A stretch of DNA of 39,189 bases from Minisyncoccota bacterium. Lineage in GTDB: Bacteria; Patescibacteriota; Minisyncoccia; Phycocordibacterales; UBA2135. The position numbers were made by a program, and so were the translations under genes. The notes beneath the pieces are model-generated. The model saw nothing but the letters and a program-made list of their open reading frames with translations, was not told where the DNA came from and did not search any database. Shown in pieces: positions 1 through 30,703 of this stretch (its first letter is position 1; every line of letters starts with the position of its first letter). The stretch lies in assembly GCA_040879685.1 (NCBI GenBank), contig JBBDJW010000002.1:1-39189 (forward strand), given 5' to 3'.

Positions 1-1
1 G

Positions 2-42
2 CTGCCGGACTTGGACTCGAACCAAGATTACAGGTACCAGAG
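2..42 (-). other. 3' portion of a second, interrupted tRNA-Gln-like copy, running to the window edge. It carries loop CTCTGGT, ACCTG, TAAT, T-arm CTTGG/TTCGAGT/CCAAG, acceptor 3' strand TCCGGCA and discriminator G.
   Basis: The reverse complement aligns base for base with the 3' half of the intact tRNA-Gln at 99-169. The T-stem is self-consistent. The acceptor strand is complementary to TGCCGGA at 283-289. Confidence 0.5.
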
Positions 43-98
43 ACCCCGCCTGACACAAGAGGCGAGGAATCTGCCTTTTTCCTTATTCCCGCACAGTG

Positions 99-169
99 CT
101 GCCAGACTAGGATTCGAACCTAGATTACAGGTGCCAGAAACCTGAGTCCTACCATTAGACGATCTGGCA
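99..169 (-). tRNA. tRNA-Gln (anticodon CTG), 71 nt, no encoded CCA
   Basis: The manual cloverleaf on the minus strand is TGCCAGA TC GTCT AATGGT AGGAC T CAGGT TTCTGGC ACCTG TAAT CTAGG TTCGAAT CCTAG TCTGGCA G. U1:A72 and G73 are typical of bacterial tRNA-Gln. Confidence 0.9.
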
Positions 170-237
170 GCACTGCGCATGAATTATCGAAAAATTCCCT
201 TTGGGAACCGGATGAAAAAGAAAACTGATTCTTTCTC

Positions 238-289
238 ATTCCTACCATTAGCCTCGCCCATAGGGCTACGGACGAAGGACGATCCGGCA
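238..289 (-). other. 5' portion of the interrupted tRNA-Gln-like copy (acceptor TGCCGGA and D-arm), with a 27-nt insert in the D-loop
   Basis: The minus strand reads TGCCGGA TC GTC [27 nt, + strand 251-277] TAATGGTAGGAAT. Apart from the insert and 2 substitutions it matches the first 26 nt of the intact tRNA-Gln. The acceptor G:C change is compensated in the 3' piece at 3-9. Confidence 0.5.
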
Positions 290-340
290 AGGGTGCTTTT
301 ACCTTACCATATTTTTTCTCCACCATGGTAGAGTATATTC

Positions 341-4244: not shown

Positions 4245-4820
4245 ATGAGCGACGTGCGCGTCACATCGGCAGAATTTGTAAAAGGCATCCGCGGAACAAA
4301 CGGAATTTTATTTAATCGTATGGCGCAGATTGCGTTCATCGGTCGCTCTAATGTTGGCAAATCAAGCGTGATTAACGCACTTGTTGGAAGAAAGAGATTG
4401 GTGAAGGAGAGTTCACAGCCGGGCAAGACAACAGAAATTAATTTTTTTCTTATAAATAACAACCGCTATTTTGTAGATCTGCCGGGATATGGCTTTGCAA
4501 AGCTTCCTGAAAAGAAGCGCGAAGGGCTCCGCAGAATGATTTTGTGGTATTTAGGGGAGCTTGAGATTGAGAATCGCACGGTGGTTTTGATTATAGACGC
4601 CTACGTTGGCCCGTCGGAGTTTGATGAGGAAGTTCTGTTGCTTTTAGAGAGGCGAGGCATTACAACTATTATTATTGCTAATAAATTTGATAAGATAAAG
4701 AAGAGCAAGGAGCGCGAGAGGAAGCAAGCGCTCAGCGAGGCGCTTTCAGGGAGGAGCTATATTCCCTTTTCAGCTCGTACAGGAGAAGGCAAGGAGGAGC
4801 TTCTCTCTCTAATTCTTTAA
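4245..4820 (+). CDS. engB: Ribosome-biogenesis GTPase EngB/YihA
   Basis: G1 GRSNVGKSS, G3 DLPGYG and G4 NKFDK motifs in a protein of typical length (191 aa). Confidence 0.9.
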   Translation: MSDVRVTSAEFVKGIRGTNGILFNRMAQIAFIGRSNVGKSSVINALVGRKRLVKESSQPGKTTEINFFLINNNRYFVDLPGYGFAKLPEKKREGLRRMILWYLGELEIENRTVVLIIDAYVGPSEFDEEVLLLLERRGITTIIIANKFDKIKKSKERERKQALSEALSGRSYIPFSARTGEGKEELLSLIL

Positions 4821-17890: not shown

Positions 17891-18784
17891 ATGGCGACAC
17901 TCTACACACATTACGATAGCAACACGCGCCGGACATGGGTCTTAATGGCCGCTTTTTTTATTGCGGTTATTTTTCTCGGATGGGCGTTTAGCTGGATCTT
18001 CAATAATTCTATCATTCTTTATGTCGCAGTCTTTTTGAGTATTGCGATGAACGTCGGAAGCTATTACTACTCGGATAAACTCGTGCTCAAGATGACAGGG
18101 GCGCATGAAGCATCTGAAAAAGAGTATCGCGAGTTACATACTCTTGTAGAGAATTTAGCAATTACCGCAGGGCTTCCAAAACCAAAGGTTTTTGTTATGA
18201 AGGAGACGGCTCCAAACGCCTTTGCTACAGGGCGAAATAAGGAACATGCGGTTGTTGCGGTTACTGAGGGGCTTTTGACGCTTCTTGAACGCACAGAGCT
18301 TGAAGGGGTGATTGCTCATGAGCTTTCTCATATTGGTAATCGCGATATGCTTGTCTCAACCATTGCGGTTACGCTTGTGGGGTTTGTAACACTTCTCTCT
18401 GACTTTTTTTTGCGCTGGTCTTTGTTTGGTGGCGGGGGAGGAGATCGCGATGGACGAATACAAATTATTATGACACTAGTAGGTGTTGTATTGGCGATTC
18501 TCGCACCGCTTGTCGCACTCCTTATTCAACTTGCTATTTCACGCAAGCGAGAGTTTTTGGCGGATGCTTCCGGTGCACTGCTGACTCGTTATCCCGAGGG
18601 GCTCGCAAGCGCGCTTTCAAAGATCGGAAAATACTCCGCGGAAATGAAGCGGGCCAACCATGCAACGGCGCATCTTTTTCTCGCTAATCCTTTTGGCAGT
18701 AAAAAGGAGCGTGGCATACACAGGTGGTTTATGACACACCCTCCCGTCTCGGAGCGCATCAGTGCACTGAGAGGAGAGAGATAA
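17891..18784 (+). CDS. htpX: M48-family zinc metalloprotease HtpX
   Basis: The HELSHI zinc motif, 4 TM segments, and the classic pairing with lemA. Confidence 0.9.
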   Translation: MATLYTHYDSNTRRTWVLMAAFFIAVIFLGWAFSWIFNNSIILYVAVFLSIAMNVGSYYYSDKLVLKMTGAHEASEKEYRELHTLVENLAITAGLPKPKVFVMKETAPNAFATGRNKEHAVVAVTEGLLTLLERTELEGVIAHELSHIGNRDMLVSTIAVTLVGFVTLLSDFFLRWSLFGGGGGDRDGRIQIIMTLVGVVLAILAPLVALLIQLAISRKREFLADASGALLTRYPEGLASALSKIGKYSAEMKRANHATAHLFLANPFGSKKERGIHRWFMTHPPVSERISALRGER

Positions 18785-18871
18785 AAAAGGTTTGTCTTAT
18801 GAGCTTATCTTGTGTAGGCTCATAAGAGAGTGCACAAGCACAAATTCATAAAAGTGTTCGGCATGAACGGA

Positions 18872-18941
18872 GGAGGAGTGGCTGACCACCTCCTTTGGCG
18901 GGGCCTCGCCGTAGGCGAGGGTGGTCTAAGGCGCACGCTTG
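18872..18941 (+). other. 5' portion of an interrupted (outer) tRNA-Ser-like gene, with a 37-nt D-loop insert
   Basis: GGAGGAGTGGCTGA + 37 nt (18886-18922) + GGTCTAAGGCGCACGCTTG. Apart from the insert it is identical to nt 1-35 of the intact tRNA-Ser at 19001. Confidence 0.55.
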
Positions 18942-19000
18942 TTCCCAATTTACACAAGAGCGAAGCGATTGTAATGTAAATTGCAATCCCTGCACATGGC

Positions 19001-19090
19001 GGAGGAGTGGCTGAGCGGTCTAAGGCGCACGCTTGGAAAGCGTGTGAGGGTTTACGCCCTCCGCGAGTTCGAATCTCGCCTCCTCCGCCA
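19001..19090 (+). tRNA. tRNA-Ser (anticodon GGA), class II with a long variable arm, CCA encoded
   Basis: Cloverleaf: GGAGGAG TG GCT GAGCGGTCTAA GGC G CACGC TTGGAAA GCGTG, variable arm TGAGGGTTTACGCCCTC C, GCGAG TTCGAAT CTCGC, CTCCTCC G CCA. Confidence 0.92.
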
Positions 19091-19099
19091 TGTGCAGGA

Positions 19100-19149
19100 G
19101 AAAGCGTGTGGGGTTCATACCCTCGCAGGTTCAAATCCTGTCTCCTCCA
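19100..19149 (+). other. 3' portion of the interrupted (outer) tRNA-Ser-like gene
   Basis: GAAA GCGTG, variable arm TGGGGTTCATACCCTC, T-arm GCAGG TTCAAAT CCTGT, acceptor CTCCTCC, discriminator A. It is complementary to the 5' portion at 18872-18941. Confidence 0.55.
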
Positions 19150-19281
19150 TATTTATAAAACTAAAAAATTTGAGAGAGGAAGGAGAATCTGAAAGAGAGA
19201 GCATCACGCGTGGTTCTCTGGTATGATGAAGGTGGTGTATAGCAAAATTTTTCTTGTAAAAATTTTGCTATACTTACTCGT

Positions 19282-19755
19282 ATGTCAGAGACGACACAAA
19301 ACATTACCCTCCTTCTTTTAACTTCACTTGCGGTGAGTTTTATTTTTCTTTCAGACGCGCCGCAAGAAGCGTCACAAAGTTGTAGCCACACACCGCTTCC
19401 CGTGAGCGAGGTCGCTTTTAAAGAACATACATTAGTTGTTGAGCTTGCAACAACCGTTGTTGCGCGAGAATGTGGTCTTTCATATAGAAAAGAGATCAAA
19501 GAAGGGCATGGAATGCTTTTTGTGTTTGAAAAAGAAGGATACCATGGCATCTGGATGGAGCATATGAGATTCCCTATTGATATTATCTGGCTTGATGAAG
19601 CCCTTCGGGTAGTTTCTATAAAAGAAAATGTCTCCCCCGATTCATTTCCAGAAGTTTTCTCACCGTCCGCTCCTGCTTTGTATGTTTTGGAGGTGAATGC
19701 CGGAGAAGTTTCTTCGCACTCTTTCTTTGTAGGAGACACCATCTTTCTTCGCTGA
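19282..19755 (+). CDS. DUF192 domain-containing protein
   Basis: N-terminal anchor and a DUF192-like core (GLSYRKEIKEGHGMLFVF, MRFPIDIIWLD). Confidence 0.75.
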   Translation: MSETTQNITLLLLTSLAVSFIFLSDAPQEASQSCSHTPLPVSEVAFKEHTLVVELATTVVARECGLSYRKEIKEGHGMLFVFEKEGYHGIWMEHMRFPIDIIWLDEALRVVSIKENVSPDSFPEVFSPSAPALYVLEVNAGEVSSHSFFVGDTIFLR

Positions 19756-22409: not shown

Positions 22410-22553
22410 CATATAAGTACCTTGTGTCTATAAGCCGAATTCTGTACTAATATTATTAACCTGCGGTGAATAAAATTAGCGGCAGTTATTTATCTAGGCC
22501 TCCTATTACTAGGCGGCTCGTGCGGCACAAATCCCGCATGTGCGGGAAGTACG

Positions 22554-22962
22554 ACCTTGCACTCAGGTAAGGATTTAGCCGTTTCACCTCCGACGTTGCC
22601 GTCGGAGCTCGCCCTGTCAAATAAGACAGGGCGTTTTAAATCTTTCGATTTAAAACGTCTCTGCTCGCACCTCTGCCAATCTTGCCCACTGCAAGGTGGT
22701 CTGCAAGATTGAGCATCCCGCCGTAGTCCTAAAGGACGACGGCGGGGGCCCGCCTTCGCGCAATGCTTCGGCGGGACGCTCAATTTTGTGCTCACCTATG
22801 GTCAACAAAATTGGCGACGGGTGTTACCCGCTACCCTGCTGCGACCCCCGCCATAAAGGCAAAGGTGCTCATTTTCGTGATTGTATTATTACAGACAAAA
22901 ATGGCGAGTGTTCGGACTTTCCTCATCCCGTATAAACGGGATGCAACTACCCAACACAAGGT
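22554..22962 (-). ncRNA. rnpB: RNase P RNA (bacterial type A-like)
   Basis: On the minus strand I see a P3 hairpin CATCCCG-TTTATA-CGGGATG followed by GAGGAAAGTCCGAAC (P4 5' strand). GCGGGTAACACCCGT is also present. GGTGAAACGGCTAAATCC is a candidate P4 3' strand. P1 pairs ACCTTG with CAAGGT. A terminator-like hairpin CCCGCA..TGCGGG followed by ATTTGT lies just downstream (22533-22546). The ends are approximate. Confidence 0.8.
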
Positions 22963-29766: not shown

Positions 29767-29888
29767 CAAGCAGTAGACATTCCCGCCACAAGCGCGGGTC
29801 GGGTAGCTCAGATATTTTCGGATCCCGAGCTTGTCGAGGGAGAATGAAAATATTGAGCGAAGCTGACCGATTCTCGCTGGCCGCACCA
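29767..29888 (+). other. tRNA-Gly-derived mosaic: a 3'-half-like copy interrupted by an 88-nt structured insert
   Basis: CAAGCAGTAGACA (29767-29779) matches tRNA-Gly 29686-29698 at 12 of 13 positions. CGATTCTCG (29868-29876) and CGCACCA (29882-29888) match the tRNA-Gly 3' end. The insert contains GGTAGCTCAG and a long hairpin at 29806-29858. Confidence 0.45.
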
Positions 29889-29940
29889 GAGCGAGAAGTG
29901 TGCTATACTAAGGCTATTGTAAGGTAATTTCAAAAAAGGT

Positions 29941-30205: not shown

Positions 30206-30249
30206 CTTTAACAATCTCATCCCGCCAAGGCGGGATGAGATTGTTAAAG
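30206..30249 (+). terminator. Long perfect stem-loop after the glutaredoxin gene
   Basis: CTTTAACAATCTCATCCCGCC / GGCGGGATGAGATTGTTAAAG with 21-nt arms. There is no clear T-run. Confidence 0.55.
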
Positions 30250-30283: not shown

Positions 30284-30355
30284 GCCCCCGTAGTTCAATG
30301 GATAGAACAGGCCCGTCCTAAGGGCTCGATGTGGGTTCGATTCCTGCCGGGGGCA
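30284..30355 (+). tRNA. tRNA-Arg (anticodon CCT), no encoded CCA
   Basis: GCCCCCG TA GTTC AATGGATA GAAC A GGCCC GTCCTAA GGGCT CGAT GTGGG TTCGATT CCTGC CGGGGGC A. The T-stem has two G:U pairs. Confidence 0.85.
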
Positions 30356-30703
30356 TCAACCAAAAATACTCACGTTTGCCGTGAGTGTTTTTGATTGGTG
30401 CAGGAATCGAACGGAAGTCTGGGAGGAGACTTCCGCGGGATTTTCCCTGGGAGGAAAATCGATTCCTGCCGGGGGCATCAACCAAAAATACTCACGTTTG
30501 CCGTGAGTGTTTTTGATTGGTGCAGGAATCGAACGGAAGTCTGGGAGGAGACTTCCGCGGGATTTTCCCTGGGAGGAAAATCGATTCCTGCCGGGGGCAT
30601 CAACCAAAAATACTCACGTTTGCCGTGAGTGTTTTTGATTGGTGCAGGAATCGAACGGAAGTCTGGGAGGAGACTTCCGCGGGATTTTCCCTGGGAGGAA
30701 AAT
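30337..30703 (+). repeat. Three perfect tandem copies of a 122-bp unit that begins with the last 19 nt of tRNA-Arg
   Basis: The units start at 30337, 30459 and 30581 and are identical at every base by direct reading. Confidence 0.95.

Follow-up and report, generated by a model that had tools for sequence, protein, structure and literature searches.

Near one end of the 39,189-nt stretch of DNA analysed here (the window), an intact tRNA-Gln(CTG) gene on the minus strand (169-99) is enclosed by the 5' part (289-240) and the 3' part (44-3) of a second tRNA-Gln. The same pattern surrounds a tRNA-Ser(GGA) gene farther along the window and recurs in uncultivated groundwater-type (CPR) bacteria, where it is up to three levels deep. 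This nested tRNA-in-tRNA organisation appears to be undescribed; no comparable arrangement was found in the literature searched. On balance, and with modest confidence, we favour a DNA-level insertion of a cassette that lacks a reading frame and carries its own replacement tRNA, the outer halves being relics that were later colonised by GC-rich hairpins.

Anatomy of the two nested loci

Read along the minus strand, the outer tRNA-Gln begins with its acceptor 5' strand TGCCGGA and nucleotides 8-12 (TCGTC), together TGCCGGATCGTC (278-289), identical to the inner tRNA at 11 of 12 positions and pairing 7/7 with the acceptor strand at 9-3. The D loop is then interrupted by a 27-nt GC-rich insert, CTTCGTCCGTA-GCCC-TATGGGCGAGG (251-277), which MFE and centroid predictions alike fold into an 11-bp hairpin and which has CYTCG-CCGTAG...GGCGAGG in common with the D-loop insert of the Ser locus. 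The remaining D loop and the 3' strand of the D stem, TAATGGTAGGA (240-250), match the inner tRNA at 11 of 11 positions. Position 25 of the outer copy is A, giving a G10:A25 mismatch, and the next five nucleotides (ATGAG, 239-235) are an ambiguous continuation of this piece. Spacer 1 (208-237), delimited from sequence and fold, consists of the hairpin GAGAAAGAA-TCAGTT-TTCTTTTTC followed by ATCCGG; as read directly from the sequence, its arms are also able to pair with spacer 2 (GAATC/GATTC and CTTTTTC/GAAAAAG).

The inserted cassette (87-207, minus strand) is 121 nt long, runs from TTCCC to GGGA and contains no reading frame. A TTCCC-AAA-GGGAA hairpin lies within it at 207-195, and its ends and helix are those of the tRNA-Ser cassettes in the window, in L132-L138 and in L146. 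The intact tRNA-Gln(CTG) that it carries (99-169; 98-169 according to ARAGORN) matches Rfam RF00005 with 60 bits (E = 1e-10), and its CCA is not encoded. The leader strand CATGCGCAGTGC (170-181) prolongs the inner acceptor stem by pairing with the trailer strand GCACTGTGCGGGA (87-99), whose first G is the discriminator base and whose TGTGCGGGA is conserved in the Ser cassettes. The earlier note described this helix as GCGCAGTGC/GCACTGTGC, with 8 Watson-Crick pairs and 1 G:U; this is correct, and the pairing extends further, to 11 of 12 positions.

Beyond the cassette, spacer 2 (44-86, minus strand; sequence and fold) comprises ATAAGGAAAAAGGCAGATT and then the hairpin CCTCGCC-TCTTGTGTCA-GGCGGGG, which overlaps a possible 5' strand of the outer anticodon stem (TCAGG, 53-49). 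The earlier note had found no such strand in the outer tRNA-Gln. Two alternatives in fact exist, either CAGG at 52-49, after which 5 nt (CGGGG) are inserted, or GAG at 237-235. With the strand at CAGG or GAG, the Gln gene is broken between D arm and anticodon stem, unlike the Ser locus, which is broken in the anticodon loop. The outer 3' part (3-44, minus strand) contains the anticodon loop (CTG), ACCTG, TAAT, the T arm CTTGG-TTCGAGT-CCAAG and the acceptor 3' strand TCCGGCA, and is identical to the inner tRNA at 38 of 44 positions. ARAGORN additionally reports a "tRNA-Lys(ctt)" at 1-93; we reject it as a false call made up of the outer 3' half and the spacer, with no Rfam match there.

The contig stops 2 nt beyond the outer 3' part. 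The Gln locus is a single example, truncated by the contig edge. This position, and the frequency with which contigs break at nested loci, might suggest that reads from different tRNA-Gln genes were joined into a chimera at the contig end. We regard such an artefact as very improbable, given that an independent Logan contig contains the same sequence and that the same architecture is found at the internal Ser locus of the window and within longer contigs from different projects and assemblers. Extending the locus leftwards was not possible, as just one further contig (Logan) contains the neighbouring Pif1 gene, and it begins at the same base. No orthologous Gln locus was found: the nearest Pif1 homologue is 58% identical with synteny lost, and the three relatives examined have other neighbours and no tRNA.

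At the sister locus on the plus strand (18872-19149), two inserts interrupt an outer tRNA-Ser(GGA) copy: a 37-nt D-loop hairpin (18886-18922) and a cassette (18942-19099) whose intact tRNA-Ser(GGA) (19001-19090) stands on a 12-bp helix. Directly after the cassette comes the outer 3' part (19100-19149). The likeness between the two loci that the earlier note drew is borne out, since one degenerate helix pattern matches both and nothing else in the window, with no match expected by chance. The two nested tRNAs have 12 of 12 and 11 of 12 helix pairs, compared with 2-4 of 12 for the un-nested tRNA-Gly, -Arg and -Phe of the window. Promoter and terminator scans of the Gln and Ser loci gave nothing above the shuffled background. 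The window also contains an RNase P RNA gene (22415-22962).

Relationship between outer and inner copies

The inner 5' half of the tRNA-Gln resembles only the upstream flank and the inner 3' half only the downstream flank (0 of 2000 shuffles were as good in either case), while the reciprocal half-versus-flank comparisons are at chance level. Relative to the inner tRNA, two stem pairs of the outer copy are compensated, namely 5:68 (A-T to G-C) and 51:63 in the T stem (A-T to T-A). Together with the fully paired acceptor strands, this directional similarity upholds the proposal that the flanking pieces are mutually belonging halves of one tRNA-Gln copy. Because the base pairs are compensated, comparison of the two copies shows that the outer one once worked as a tRNA, in a lineage distinct from that of the inner copy; a present function is not implied. 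A simple tandem duplication followed by decay is ruled out because the two copies differ by compensated pairs, and an integrase att-site duplication because the 5' and 3' halves lie on opposite sides of an intact gene.

In an unconstrained fold of 291-1, the outer acceptor strands are paired in both the MFE and the centroid structure (z = -8.3), and every hairpin listed in the earlier note forms; the sequence elements that it named are likewise all present where it had placed them. The Ser locus folds with z = -7.7. In the family alignment, the Gln helix pairs at 12 of 13 positions, and helix plus acceptor stem (20 pairs) are 97% paired, with ten pairs changed on both sides. The score observed for these 20 pairs was reached by none of 500 shuffles. 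This covariation supports the predicted leader/trailer helix.

Recurrence, insertion sites and decay

In all seven metagenome contigs retrieved by the helix pattern, a tRNA-Ser stands on this same helix; nesting is found in six of them and is three deep in L135. A further nested locus, L146, was found independently via its neighbouring M48 peptidase gene. In addition to the two cassettes of the window, related cassettes are thus present in eight further contigs with differing neighbours, and outer and inner copies share the anticodon in every nested case. Conservation between the window and L138, which differ in genomic context, is mosaic, with identities of 97% over the 5' part of the insert, 83% over the inner tRNA and 44% over the outer 5' piece. 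Relatives with GroEL-LemA-M48 synteny have a plain tRNA-Ser at the corresponding place, among them L147, which is un-nested and lacks the helix, and the D loop is uninterrupted in L144 (M48 84% identical). A genome query with the ribonucleotide reductase beside the Ser locus returned seven loci from Patescibacteria, Saccharibacteria and Babeliales MAGs (58-67% identity), none of which has an adjoining tRNA. A nestedness score computed over 912 tRNAs gave one possible case, and the window scores above the 99th percentile. Assemblies tend to break at nested loci, as the window edge, L137 and L144 each end inside one. On viral contigs, the generic pattern of two T loops 44-68 nt apart proved too unspecific, and the five matches to the helix pattern, none with a tRNA, were chance inverted repeats in GC-rich phages.

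Across all Ser loci, insertion follows CTTG^ or RTTG^ (consensus CTTG^RAAA), with hairpins near both cassette ends. The inserts follow G and end in A (GGGA^), and their removal is nucleotide-exact and restores a 7-nt anticodon loop. CTTG^ falls at position 34/35 in GGA tRNAs and at 35/36 in TGA tRNAs, which indicates that the insertion rule is based on sequence and not on structure. The Gln site (CCGG^...^ATAAGG, between D arm and anticodon stem) does not match the Ser consensus, and T-loop insertion sites are TTC^. A module of the form TTCC-hairpin-CAATCC-hairpin-GGA, tRNA-less and reversed, occupies two T loops of L134, and L145 has hairpin-only inserts at CTTG^GAAA. The Gln and Ser junctions show no direct repeat indicative of a target-site duplication; the only such repeat, a 3-nt TCC, lies around the internal "Pa" hairpin, the empty site of which is seen in L137. 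GGCGAGG/CCTCGCC is not a genome-wide repeat, with only a few scattered copies in the window outside both nested loci. D-loop hairpins analogous to the one in the Gln locus occur in L132, L134, L135, L146 and L150. The small hairpin inserts of outer copies are confined to D or T loops and never occur in stems, a placement with a probability of about 1e-5 if random (a rough estimate), and this could reflect selection preserving the cloverleaf.

The outer copies show various degrees of decay. Those of the window are nearly intact, and without their inserts ARAGORN calls them tRNA-Gln and tRNA-Ser. Overall, once all inserts have been deleted in silico, ARAGORN fails to recognise 5 of the 10 outer copies. 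Neither T arm nor acceptor is left in the outer copies of L136 and L146, the 3' half is missing from the outermost layer of L135 and the 5' half from the middle layer of L134, and in L137 no upstream outer piece can be recognised beside the cassette helix.

These losses bear on the idea that the outer halves are a cis-acting scaffold, i.e., a tRNA-like clamp on the primary transcript that never becomes a tRNA and either recruits RNase P or protects the inner pre-tRNA and helps it to fold. The very stable and well-defined folds with paired outer acceptors would suit such a clamp, and the loop-restricted hairpins suggest that a cloverleaf outline is tolerated or preserved. Nevertheless, many loci are missing one outer half or acceptor strand while the inner tRNA is still intact, the L137 helix does without its upstream piece, and the un-nested tRNA-Ser genes of L147 and L150 have no clamp. 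We therefore consider this role unlikely.

The nested architecture put forward in the earlier note stands, but the joining of the outer halves as exons that it implied is not supported by the wider family, because outer copies are broken, the module occurs tRNA-less and reversed, and insertion tracks CTTG^. Joining would make the locus a Russian-doll pre-tRNA in which the outer halves are exons and the tRNA cassette an intron; with the hairpins removed as well and the halves ligated, for example after excision by double-strand-specific and tRNA-end nucleases, one locus would yield two tRNA-Gln. Several observations are as expected from this: the acceptor and T stems of the outer copy are perfectly paired, with compensated differences from the inner tRNA, the Ser insertion is exact, the outer copies of the window become recognisable tRNAs after in-silico excision, the small inserts lie in loops only, and the unconstrained fold unites the outer halves. 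On the other hand, the outer copies found elsewhere are broken in half of the cases, the cut site is set by sequence and not by tRNA geometry, and the insert module is also found reversed. CPR/Patescibacteria lineages are known for small genomes, and in a small genome a spliced product with the same anticodon as the inner tRNA would be redundant. Moreover, the outer Gln copy requires three excisions and even then keeps G27:G43 and G10:A25 mismatches, the outer Ser copy has A73 whereas all inner tRNA-Ser genes have G73, no bulge-helix-bulge was evident on inspection of the junctions, no known ribozyme was found, and roughly 40 reading frames scanned in the window include no splicing endonuclease or RNA ligase gene. 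We give splicing of this kind little credence, and slightly less still to its extension to CPR bacteria at large, where pre-tRNAs nested up to three levels would have D- and T-loop hairpins as further introns and a bacterial protein machinery would excise all of them and ligate the halves. Broken outer copies, reversed tRNA-less modules and the CTTG^ rule fit a DNA-level insertion that leaves a relic.

Two further observations concern rearranged tRNA pieces. Downstream of several tRNAs (the tRNA-Arg array of the window and those of L138, L145 and L147), tRNA 3' ends are present as direct copies alongside inverted copies of T arms. In L150/L152, a displaced tRNA-Ser 5' fragment, which has a D-loop hairpin, and an intact tRNA-Ser are separated by a GIY-YIG nuclease gene. 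Both would be expected if tRNA genes broke repeatedly in situ, e.g., at a nuclease site or a replication barrier, and copying or fold-back repair produced duplicated, inverted and nested pieces with no dedicated mobile element; the lack of target duplications points the same way. This origin nevertheless seems improbable to us, as the compensated pairs mean that the inner copy is no recent duplicate of the outer one, and identical cassette ends and helix surround two isotypes in many genomes and contexts. The L150/L152 arrangement also counts in favour of cassette insertion.

Known systems and a proposed route

Integrative elements and islands in tRNA genes reportedly use anticodon-loop and T-loop sublocations. 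The hot spots here are likewise the anticodon loop and the T loop, and in both cases tRNA sequence supplied by the element preserves gene function. Islands, however, supply only the 3' part of the tRNA, with direct repeats attL and attR kilobases apart and an integrase gene adjoining, whereas here a complete tRNA is supplied and both old halves are kept ~100 nt away, the 5' half matching upstream only and the 3' half downstream only, with no integrase in the window. Miniature inverted-repeat and IS200/IS605-type palindromic elements are short, ORF-less and hairpin-rich with inverted ends. The cassettes resemble them in inserting after a short conserved sequence (CTTG, Ser) with no duplication, in either orientation and with nesting; they have terminal inverted repeats (TTCCC...GGGA(A) ends plus the 10-13-bp leader/trailer inverted repeat), and copies occur at many sites in both orientations. 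A target-site duplication, expected of miniature inverted-repeat elements, is absent at the Gln and Ser junctions, the Gln site has no CTTG and the window no transposase partner gene, and we know of no element of either type that carries a complete tRNA gene replacing its target. The rRNA processing stems and intervening sequences that RNase III cuts likewise place a structured RNA gene inside a long leader/trailer duplex. The duplex around the inner tRNA differs in that it travels with the cassette; to our knowledge, single bacterial tRNA genes have not been reported to possess such a duplex regularly.

In the tRNA-dependent lysogeny of actinobacteriophages, the inserting element breaks up an essential tRNA gene of the host, does not rebuild it, and compensates with its own tRNA of the same isotype (Guerrero-Bustamante & Hatfull, 2024, PMC10865867). 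The same working principle is found here, as the outer tRNA-Gln(CTG) is split and the inner one intact, and likewise at the Ser loci. The lysogenic element, however, comprises an entire prophage that encodes a tyrosine integrase and uses an att core of ~10 bp (PMC10865867), whereas the insert here is ~120-160 nt, ORF-less, without a visible core repeat, placed within the tRNA body and recursively nested. It is not a temperate phage, with no match among phage records or viral contigs. Group I introns interrupt the anticodon loops of bacterial tRNAs exactly, with exon nucleotides neither lost nor gained (Williams, 2020, bioRxiv 10.1101/2020.01.27.920355), as do the inserts at the Ser loci. Such introns are usually preceded by U and end in G, unlike the Ser inserts, which are preceded by G and end in A; in addition, the insert is mostly tRNA, reversed copies exist and the Gln insert lies outside the anticodon loop. 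A permissive cmscan of 1-340 and 18780-19290 for a group I core, known ribozyme or RNA family gave only tRNA and chance-level matches, and no group I match reached the gathering threshold in the Rfam search.

Archaea have multi-intron, split and permuted tRNA genes with bulge-helix-bulge motifs (PMC3978253; PMC4090602). Shared with these are several interruptions per gene, non-canonical positions (D loop, anticodon stem and T loop) and complementary leader/trailer helices. Here, in contrast, the host is bacterial, the helix belongs to and flanks a complete inner tRNA instead of halves, the halves are collinear and in normal order, and many interrupted copies are decayed. Inspection of junctions and folds showed that a 4-bp TTCC/GGGA helix can form beside both Ser junctions, without two 3-nt bulges. 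Finally, SegB is a free-standing GIY-YIG homing endonuclease of the T4 tRNA gene cluster that drives copying or amplification of tRNA DNA (PMC2988022; PMC13096335). The GIY-YIG gene among the tRNA-Ser pieces of L150/L152 is reminiscent of it, although SegB is phage-borne and no such gene is present in the window.

For the favoured insertion we propose the following route. A resident tRNA-Gln(CTG) gene would have been split at the DNA level by the small ORF-less cassette (207-87), which brought a complete tRNA-Gln(CTG) with its acceptor stem prolonged by the ~12-bp leader/trailer helix. The element would spare its host because a replacement for the interrupted gene comes along, and the inner tRNA would be the working gene. 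A double-strand-specific cut in the long helix probably frees it from a longer transcript, after which RNase P, 3' trimming and CCA addition would complete it. The outer halves would be the remains of the interrupted gene, still matching each other because they were once one functional tRNA of a lineage distinct from the inner one, and GC-rich hairpins would have invaded them later, one in the D loop and one beside the anticodon stem. Counting against this reading are the single Gln example with its deviating insertion site, the nearly intact outer copies of the window, the confinement of small inserts to loops and the failure to find an orthologous Gln locus. No target-site duplication was found either, and roughly 40 reading frames scanned in the 39-kb window include no transposase, integrase or nuclease gene, so that the mobility of the cassette is inferred. 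Its way of moving (e.g., single-strand transposition, or homing at a site cut by a nuclease) and the processing of the RNA are likewise proposals.

Loci of this kind mislead tRNA finders, as the false "tRNA-Lys" illustrates, and false tRNA calls together with assembly breaks at nested loci bias tRNA counts and completeness estimates for CPR bacteria. If outer copies were joined after all, this would amount to protein-dependent tRNA splicing in bacteria. Should the cassette prove mobile, it would be a very small site-specific element with a targeting rule (CTTG^ in tRNA-Ser) that lends itself to elucidation. For some CPR tRNAs, the conserved 20-bp helix points to an unstudied processing route, and the loci as a whole to an unreported mode of tRNA gene organisation and turnover, in which an ORF-less insert brings a whole replacement tRNA and can nest within further copies of its own kind.

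The tRNA-Gln(CTG) locus at the contig edge

The window is a 39-kb chromosome piece of a CPR/Patescibacteria bacterium and encodes Obg, RNase J, GroES/GroEL, a class II ribonucleotide reductase, MurJ, LepA, an aminoacyl-tRNA synthetase and TsaD. The ribonucleotide reductase shares 58-67% identity with reductases of Patescibacteria, Saccharibacteria and Babeliales MAGs, the Pif1 helicase and M48 peptidase have named homologues in Parcubacteria- and Paceibacteria-type MAGs, and phage records searched with the window gave no match. The Gln locus lies at the left contig edge, upstream of the divergently oriented Pif1 gene (341-2023), which occurs in just one other contig; that contig starts at the same base as the window. 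Three independent contigs (the window at position 1 and two contigs from relatives, L137 and L144) terminate within nested or helix-flanked tRNA loci, which suggests that loci of this kind are a systematic breakpoint in short-read assemblies of these bacteria.

Read on the minus strand, the split outer copy begins with its acceptor 5' strand and nucleotides 8-12 (TGCCGGATCGTC, 289-278; 11/12 identity with the inner tRNA), followed by a 27-nt insert predicted to fold into an 11-bp hairpin (277-251) and by the piece TAATGGTAGGA (250-240; 11/11 identity). After a further hairpin (237-214) and ATCCGG comes the inserted cassette (207-87), which opens with TTCCC-AAA-GGGAA and carries the leader CATGCGCAGTGC, the intact inner tRNA-Gln(CTG) (169-99; Rfam 60 bits) and the trailer GCACTGTGCGGGA. 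A spacer (86-68) and the hairpin CCTCGCC...GGCGGGG (67-44) lead to the outer 3' part (44-3). There the CTG-bearing anticodon loop is followed by ACCTG, TAAT, a perfect T arm and TCCGGCA, and 38 of the 44 positions match the inner tRNA.

The earlier note had proposed that an intact tRNA-Gln(CTG) sits between the halves of a second one, and the directional similarity bears this out: the 5' half of the inner tRNA resembles the upstream flank only and the 3' half the downstream flank only, each beating 2000 of 2000 shuffles (0/2000 as good), and the reciprocal comparisons are at chance level. The outer halves also belong together, as had been claimed, their acceptor strands pairing at 7/7 positions and two stem pairs (5:68 and 51:63) being changed on both sides relative to the inner tRNA. 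These compensated differences show that the two copies had separate histories as working tRNAs; the inner tRNA is of outside origin and no recent local duplicate. In an unconstrained fold of the locus, the outer acceptor strands pair in both the minimum free energy and the centroid structure (z = -8.3), and the sister tRNA-Ser locus behaves in the same way (z = -7.7). We consider it unlikely that the outer halves act as a cis-acting scaffold.

A 5' strand for the outer anticodon stem, for which the earlier note saw no obvious sequence, does have candidates. When the D-loop hairpin and positions ~236-45 are removed in silico, ARAGORN calls a 72-nt tRNA-Gln(CTG) with a G27:G43 mismatch and a weakened D stem; the alternative strand is TCAGG at 53-49, with a 5-nt CGGGG insertion. 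Both alternatives place the large insert between D arm and anticodon stem, outside the anticodon loop, and the outer copy is tRNA-like only after two or three excisions. The cassette site (CCGG^...^ATAAGG, where ^ marks the insertion point) has no CTTG and lies within a longer imperfect palindrome built by the two spacers. Being cut by the contig edge, layered with several hairpins and the single Gln-type nest obtained (all other nested cases are tRNA-Ser), with no orthologue for comparison, this locus is the less clean member. A 93-nt "tRNA-Lys(ctt)" called by ARAGORN at 1-93 (minus strand) was rejected as a by-product of the outer 3' half and the spacer; it has no Rfam support and is likely an annotation artefact of such loci.

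A family of nested loci sharing a leader/trailer helix

The sister tRNA-Ser(GGA) locus (18872-19149, plus strand) has an outer copy split by a 37-nt D-loop hairpin and by a cassette inserted exactly between anticodon positions 34 and 35, with an intact tRNA-Ser(GGA) on a 12-bp leader/trailer helix. The outer copy carries A73 and lacks CCA; its inner counterpart carries G73 and encodes CCA. That the two loci share one architecture was confirmed by a degenerate pattern (trailer complement, T loop, leader complement) that matched both nested loci and nothing else in the window (0 expected by chance). Their helices are alike in sequence (TGCGCAGTGC vs TGCACATGGC; trailer ends TGTGCGGGA vs TGTGCAGGA). 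Of 12 leader positions, all 12 pair with the trailer at the inner tRNA-Ser and 11 at the inner tRNA-Gln, compared with only 2-4 at the un-nested Gly, Arg and Phe tRNAs of the window (n = 3); the helix is thus a property of the nested tRNAs.

The same pattern retrieved seven contigs from the JGI/ENA metagenome collection, some of them from Hainich groundwater assemblies. All seven carry a tRNA-Ser (GGA or TGA) on the helix (T)CCCGCACATKGC / GCMATGTGCGGGA, and six show the nested arrangement of the window's Ser locus: the outer 5' half ends in CTTG (RTTG in L136 and L138), mostly followed by TTCC, a hairpin and CAATCC, then by leader, inner tRNA and a trailer ending in GGGA, with RAAA and the outer 3' part at the end. 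In L135 the nesting reaches three levels, every one with its own complementary leader/trailer pair. Within its positions 1-500, an intact tRNA-Ser(TGA) lies inside a second copy with leader/trailer CGCCCCAGAGC/GCTCTGGGGCG and a 20-nt T-loop hairpin, and this second copy in turn sits within the outermost one, whose D loop carries a hairpin and whose 3' half is gone. A further nested contig, L146, was found independently through the M48 peptidase gene that adjoins the window's Ser locus. Across ten aligned cassettes, the 13-bp helix and 7-bp acceptor stem are 97% paired; ten pairs differ at both bases, and neither shuffles nor slid registers came near the observed score. The Gln locus is one of two nested loci in the window, in a family that recurs across CPR-type metagenome contigs; that the arrangement is an assembly artefact is very improbable.

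Proposed DNA-level insertion into tRNA genes and decay of the outer copies

Several observations speak for an insertion at the DNA level, with the old gene copy remaining as a relic. Between the window and L138, identity is 97% in the 5' part of the insert, 83% in the inner tRNA and 44% in the outer 5' piece, and the neighbouring genes differ. Insertion in the Ser loci follows CTTG (or RTTG, as noted), which corresponds to position 34/35 in GGA tRNAs and 35/36 in TGA tRNAs; an enzyme measuring tRNA geometry would not act in this way. Two T loops of outer tRNA-Ser pieces in L134 (795-853 and 900-980) hold inserts of 59 and 81 nt that read, on the opposite strand, TTCCC-hairpin-GCAATCC-hairpin-GGGA. 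This is the layout of the anticodon-loop cassettes without the tRNA, reversed relative to the tRNA gene, with a plain tetraloop hairpin replacing helix and tRNA. In L145, a broken tRNA-Ser holds nothing but hairpins at its CTTG^GAAA site, and an intact tRNA-Ser lies just downstream of it. The hairpin enclosed by TTCC and CAATCC has the look of a small insertion in its own right, with a flanking TCC repeat, and L137 presents its empty site (TTCC^CGCACATGGC). Where relatives share the GroEL-LemA-M48 gene order, a plain tRNA-Ser occupies the Ser-locus site or its vicinity; the L144 contig (M48 84% identical) ends within a tRNA-Ser whose D loop is uninterrupted and which lacks a leader helix, and in L147 the tRNA-Ser(GGA) is un-nested and lacks the helix. 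In-situ break-and-repair rearrangement is an equally unlikely source of these loci as the scaffold is of their retention.

Joining of the outer halves into a tRNA by functional nested splicing would fit the window's own Gln and Ser outer copies, which are still near-intact, but with inserts removed in silico ARAGORN fails to recognise five of ten outer copies, and one of the five recognised (L132) has an aberrant anticodon loop. In L136 and L146 the outer copy is missing its T arm and acceptor strand, the middle layer of L134 lacks its 5' half, and the anticodon-stem strands of L138 mismatch each other; we regard such splicing as improbable. Small GC-rich hairpins occur in D loops (window Gln and Ser, L132, L134, L135, L146, L150) and T loops (L134 twice, L135) and never in stems of outer copies (roughly 1e-5 for random placement), which suggests either an insertion process acting on folded single strands or selection keeping the cloverleaf outline.

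Among known systems, a group I intron was rejected because no core was found and the junction bases are wrong (bioRxiv 10.1101/2020.01.27.920355); a bulge-helix-bulge intron is not recognisable on inspection of the nested loci, nor do these qualify as split or permuted tRNA genes (PMC3978253, PMC4090602). [quoted passage not shown] Unlike the elements of that system, the element here is not a phage, lacks an integrase, measures ~120-160 nt and nests. It resembles miniature inverted-repeat or palindromic elements in its inverted ends, both orientations, nesting and several copies, but differs in that no target duplication was found at the cassette insertions. In the 39-kb window there is no gene for a transposase, integrase or nuclease, and our search of the literature on nested tRNAs, CPR tRNA introns and insertions in tRNA genes turned up no account of the arrangement.

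Other tRNA-linked elements were observed. In L150 (5463-5852) and L152, an intact tRNA-Ser(GGA) is separated from a displaced tRNA-Ser 5' fragment by a small GIY-YIG nuclease gene, whose stop codon falls within the D arm of the intact tRNA; the L150 fragment (nucleotides 1-29) matches the intact tRNA at 100% of 29 nt, apart from a 35-nt hairpin in its D loop. Directly 3' of the window's tRNA-Arg(CCT), three tandem, 100% identical 122-nt units (30337-30703, plus strand) each start with the last 18 nt of that tRNA (TCGATTCCTGCCGGGGGCA) and contain a terminator-like hairpin and an 11-bp inverted T-arm copy around two hairpins with CTGGGAGGA loops. Similar units (inverted T arm, then direct tRNA 3'-end copy) follow tRNA-Ser genes in L138, L145 and L147. 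A conserved element, GCGCGGGTCGGGTAGCTCAGATATTTT...GAAGCTGACCGAWTC, after the window's tRNA-Gly (29790-29907, plus strand) and the L145 tRNA-Ser (4271-4356) is tRNA-like at both ends, with a T-stem/acceptor-like 3' end with CCA, and received no tRNA or Rfam call. Between a glutaredoxin-like gene and tRNA-Arg, a 19-bp perfect palindromic hairpin (30208-30247, plus strand; TTAACAATCTCATCCCGCC-AA-GGCGGGATGAGATTGTTAA) has a core of the TCCCGCC...GGCGGGA type, as in the hairpins inserted in tRNA loops.

Proposed processing of the inner tRNA and persistence of the cassette

On balance, we lean towards a self-compensating insertion into a tRNA gene at the DNA level, with the outer halves left as a relic. 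As the sequences support, a complete tRNA-Gln on a cassette would have entered a resident tRNA-Gln gene. The inner tRNA may then be co-transcribed with the outer 5' piece; a promoter scan gave no prominent separate promoter for it. Helix and acceptor stem would form a continuous duplex of ~19 bp, which a double-strand-specific RNase could cut, followed by RNase P, 3' trimming and CCA addition, the last needed because the inner tRNA-Gln gene encodes no CCA. The window carries RNase J and a class A RNase P RNA gene (22415-22962, minus strand), which at 92.4 bits falls just below the Rfam gathering score of 100 and is missed by a default scan; it measures 548 nt against the 367-nt model, with ~180 nt extra. 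The extra sequence includes a hairpin, TCCCGCA..TGCGGGA (22532-22547), identical in sequence to the cassette helix ends. The outer halves, probably dispensable, would be free to accumulate hairpin insertions, as their sequences indicate, and the cassette may persist by replacing the very function that it destroys.
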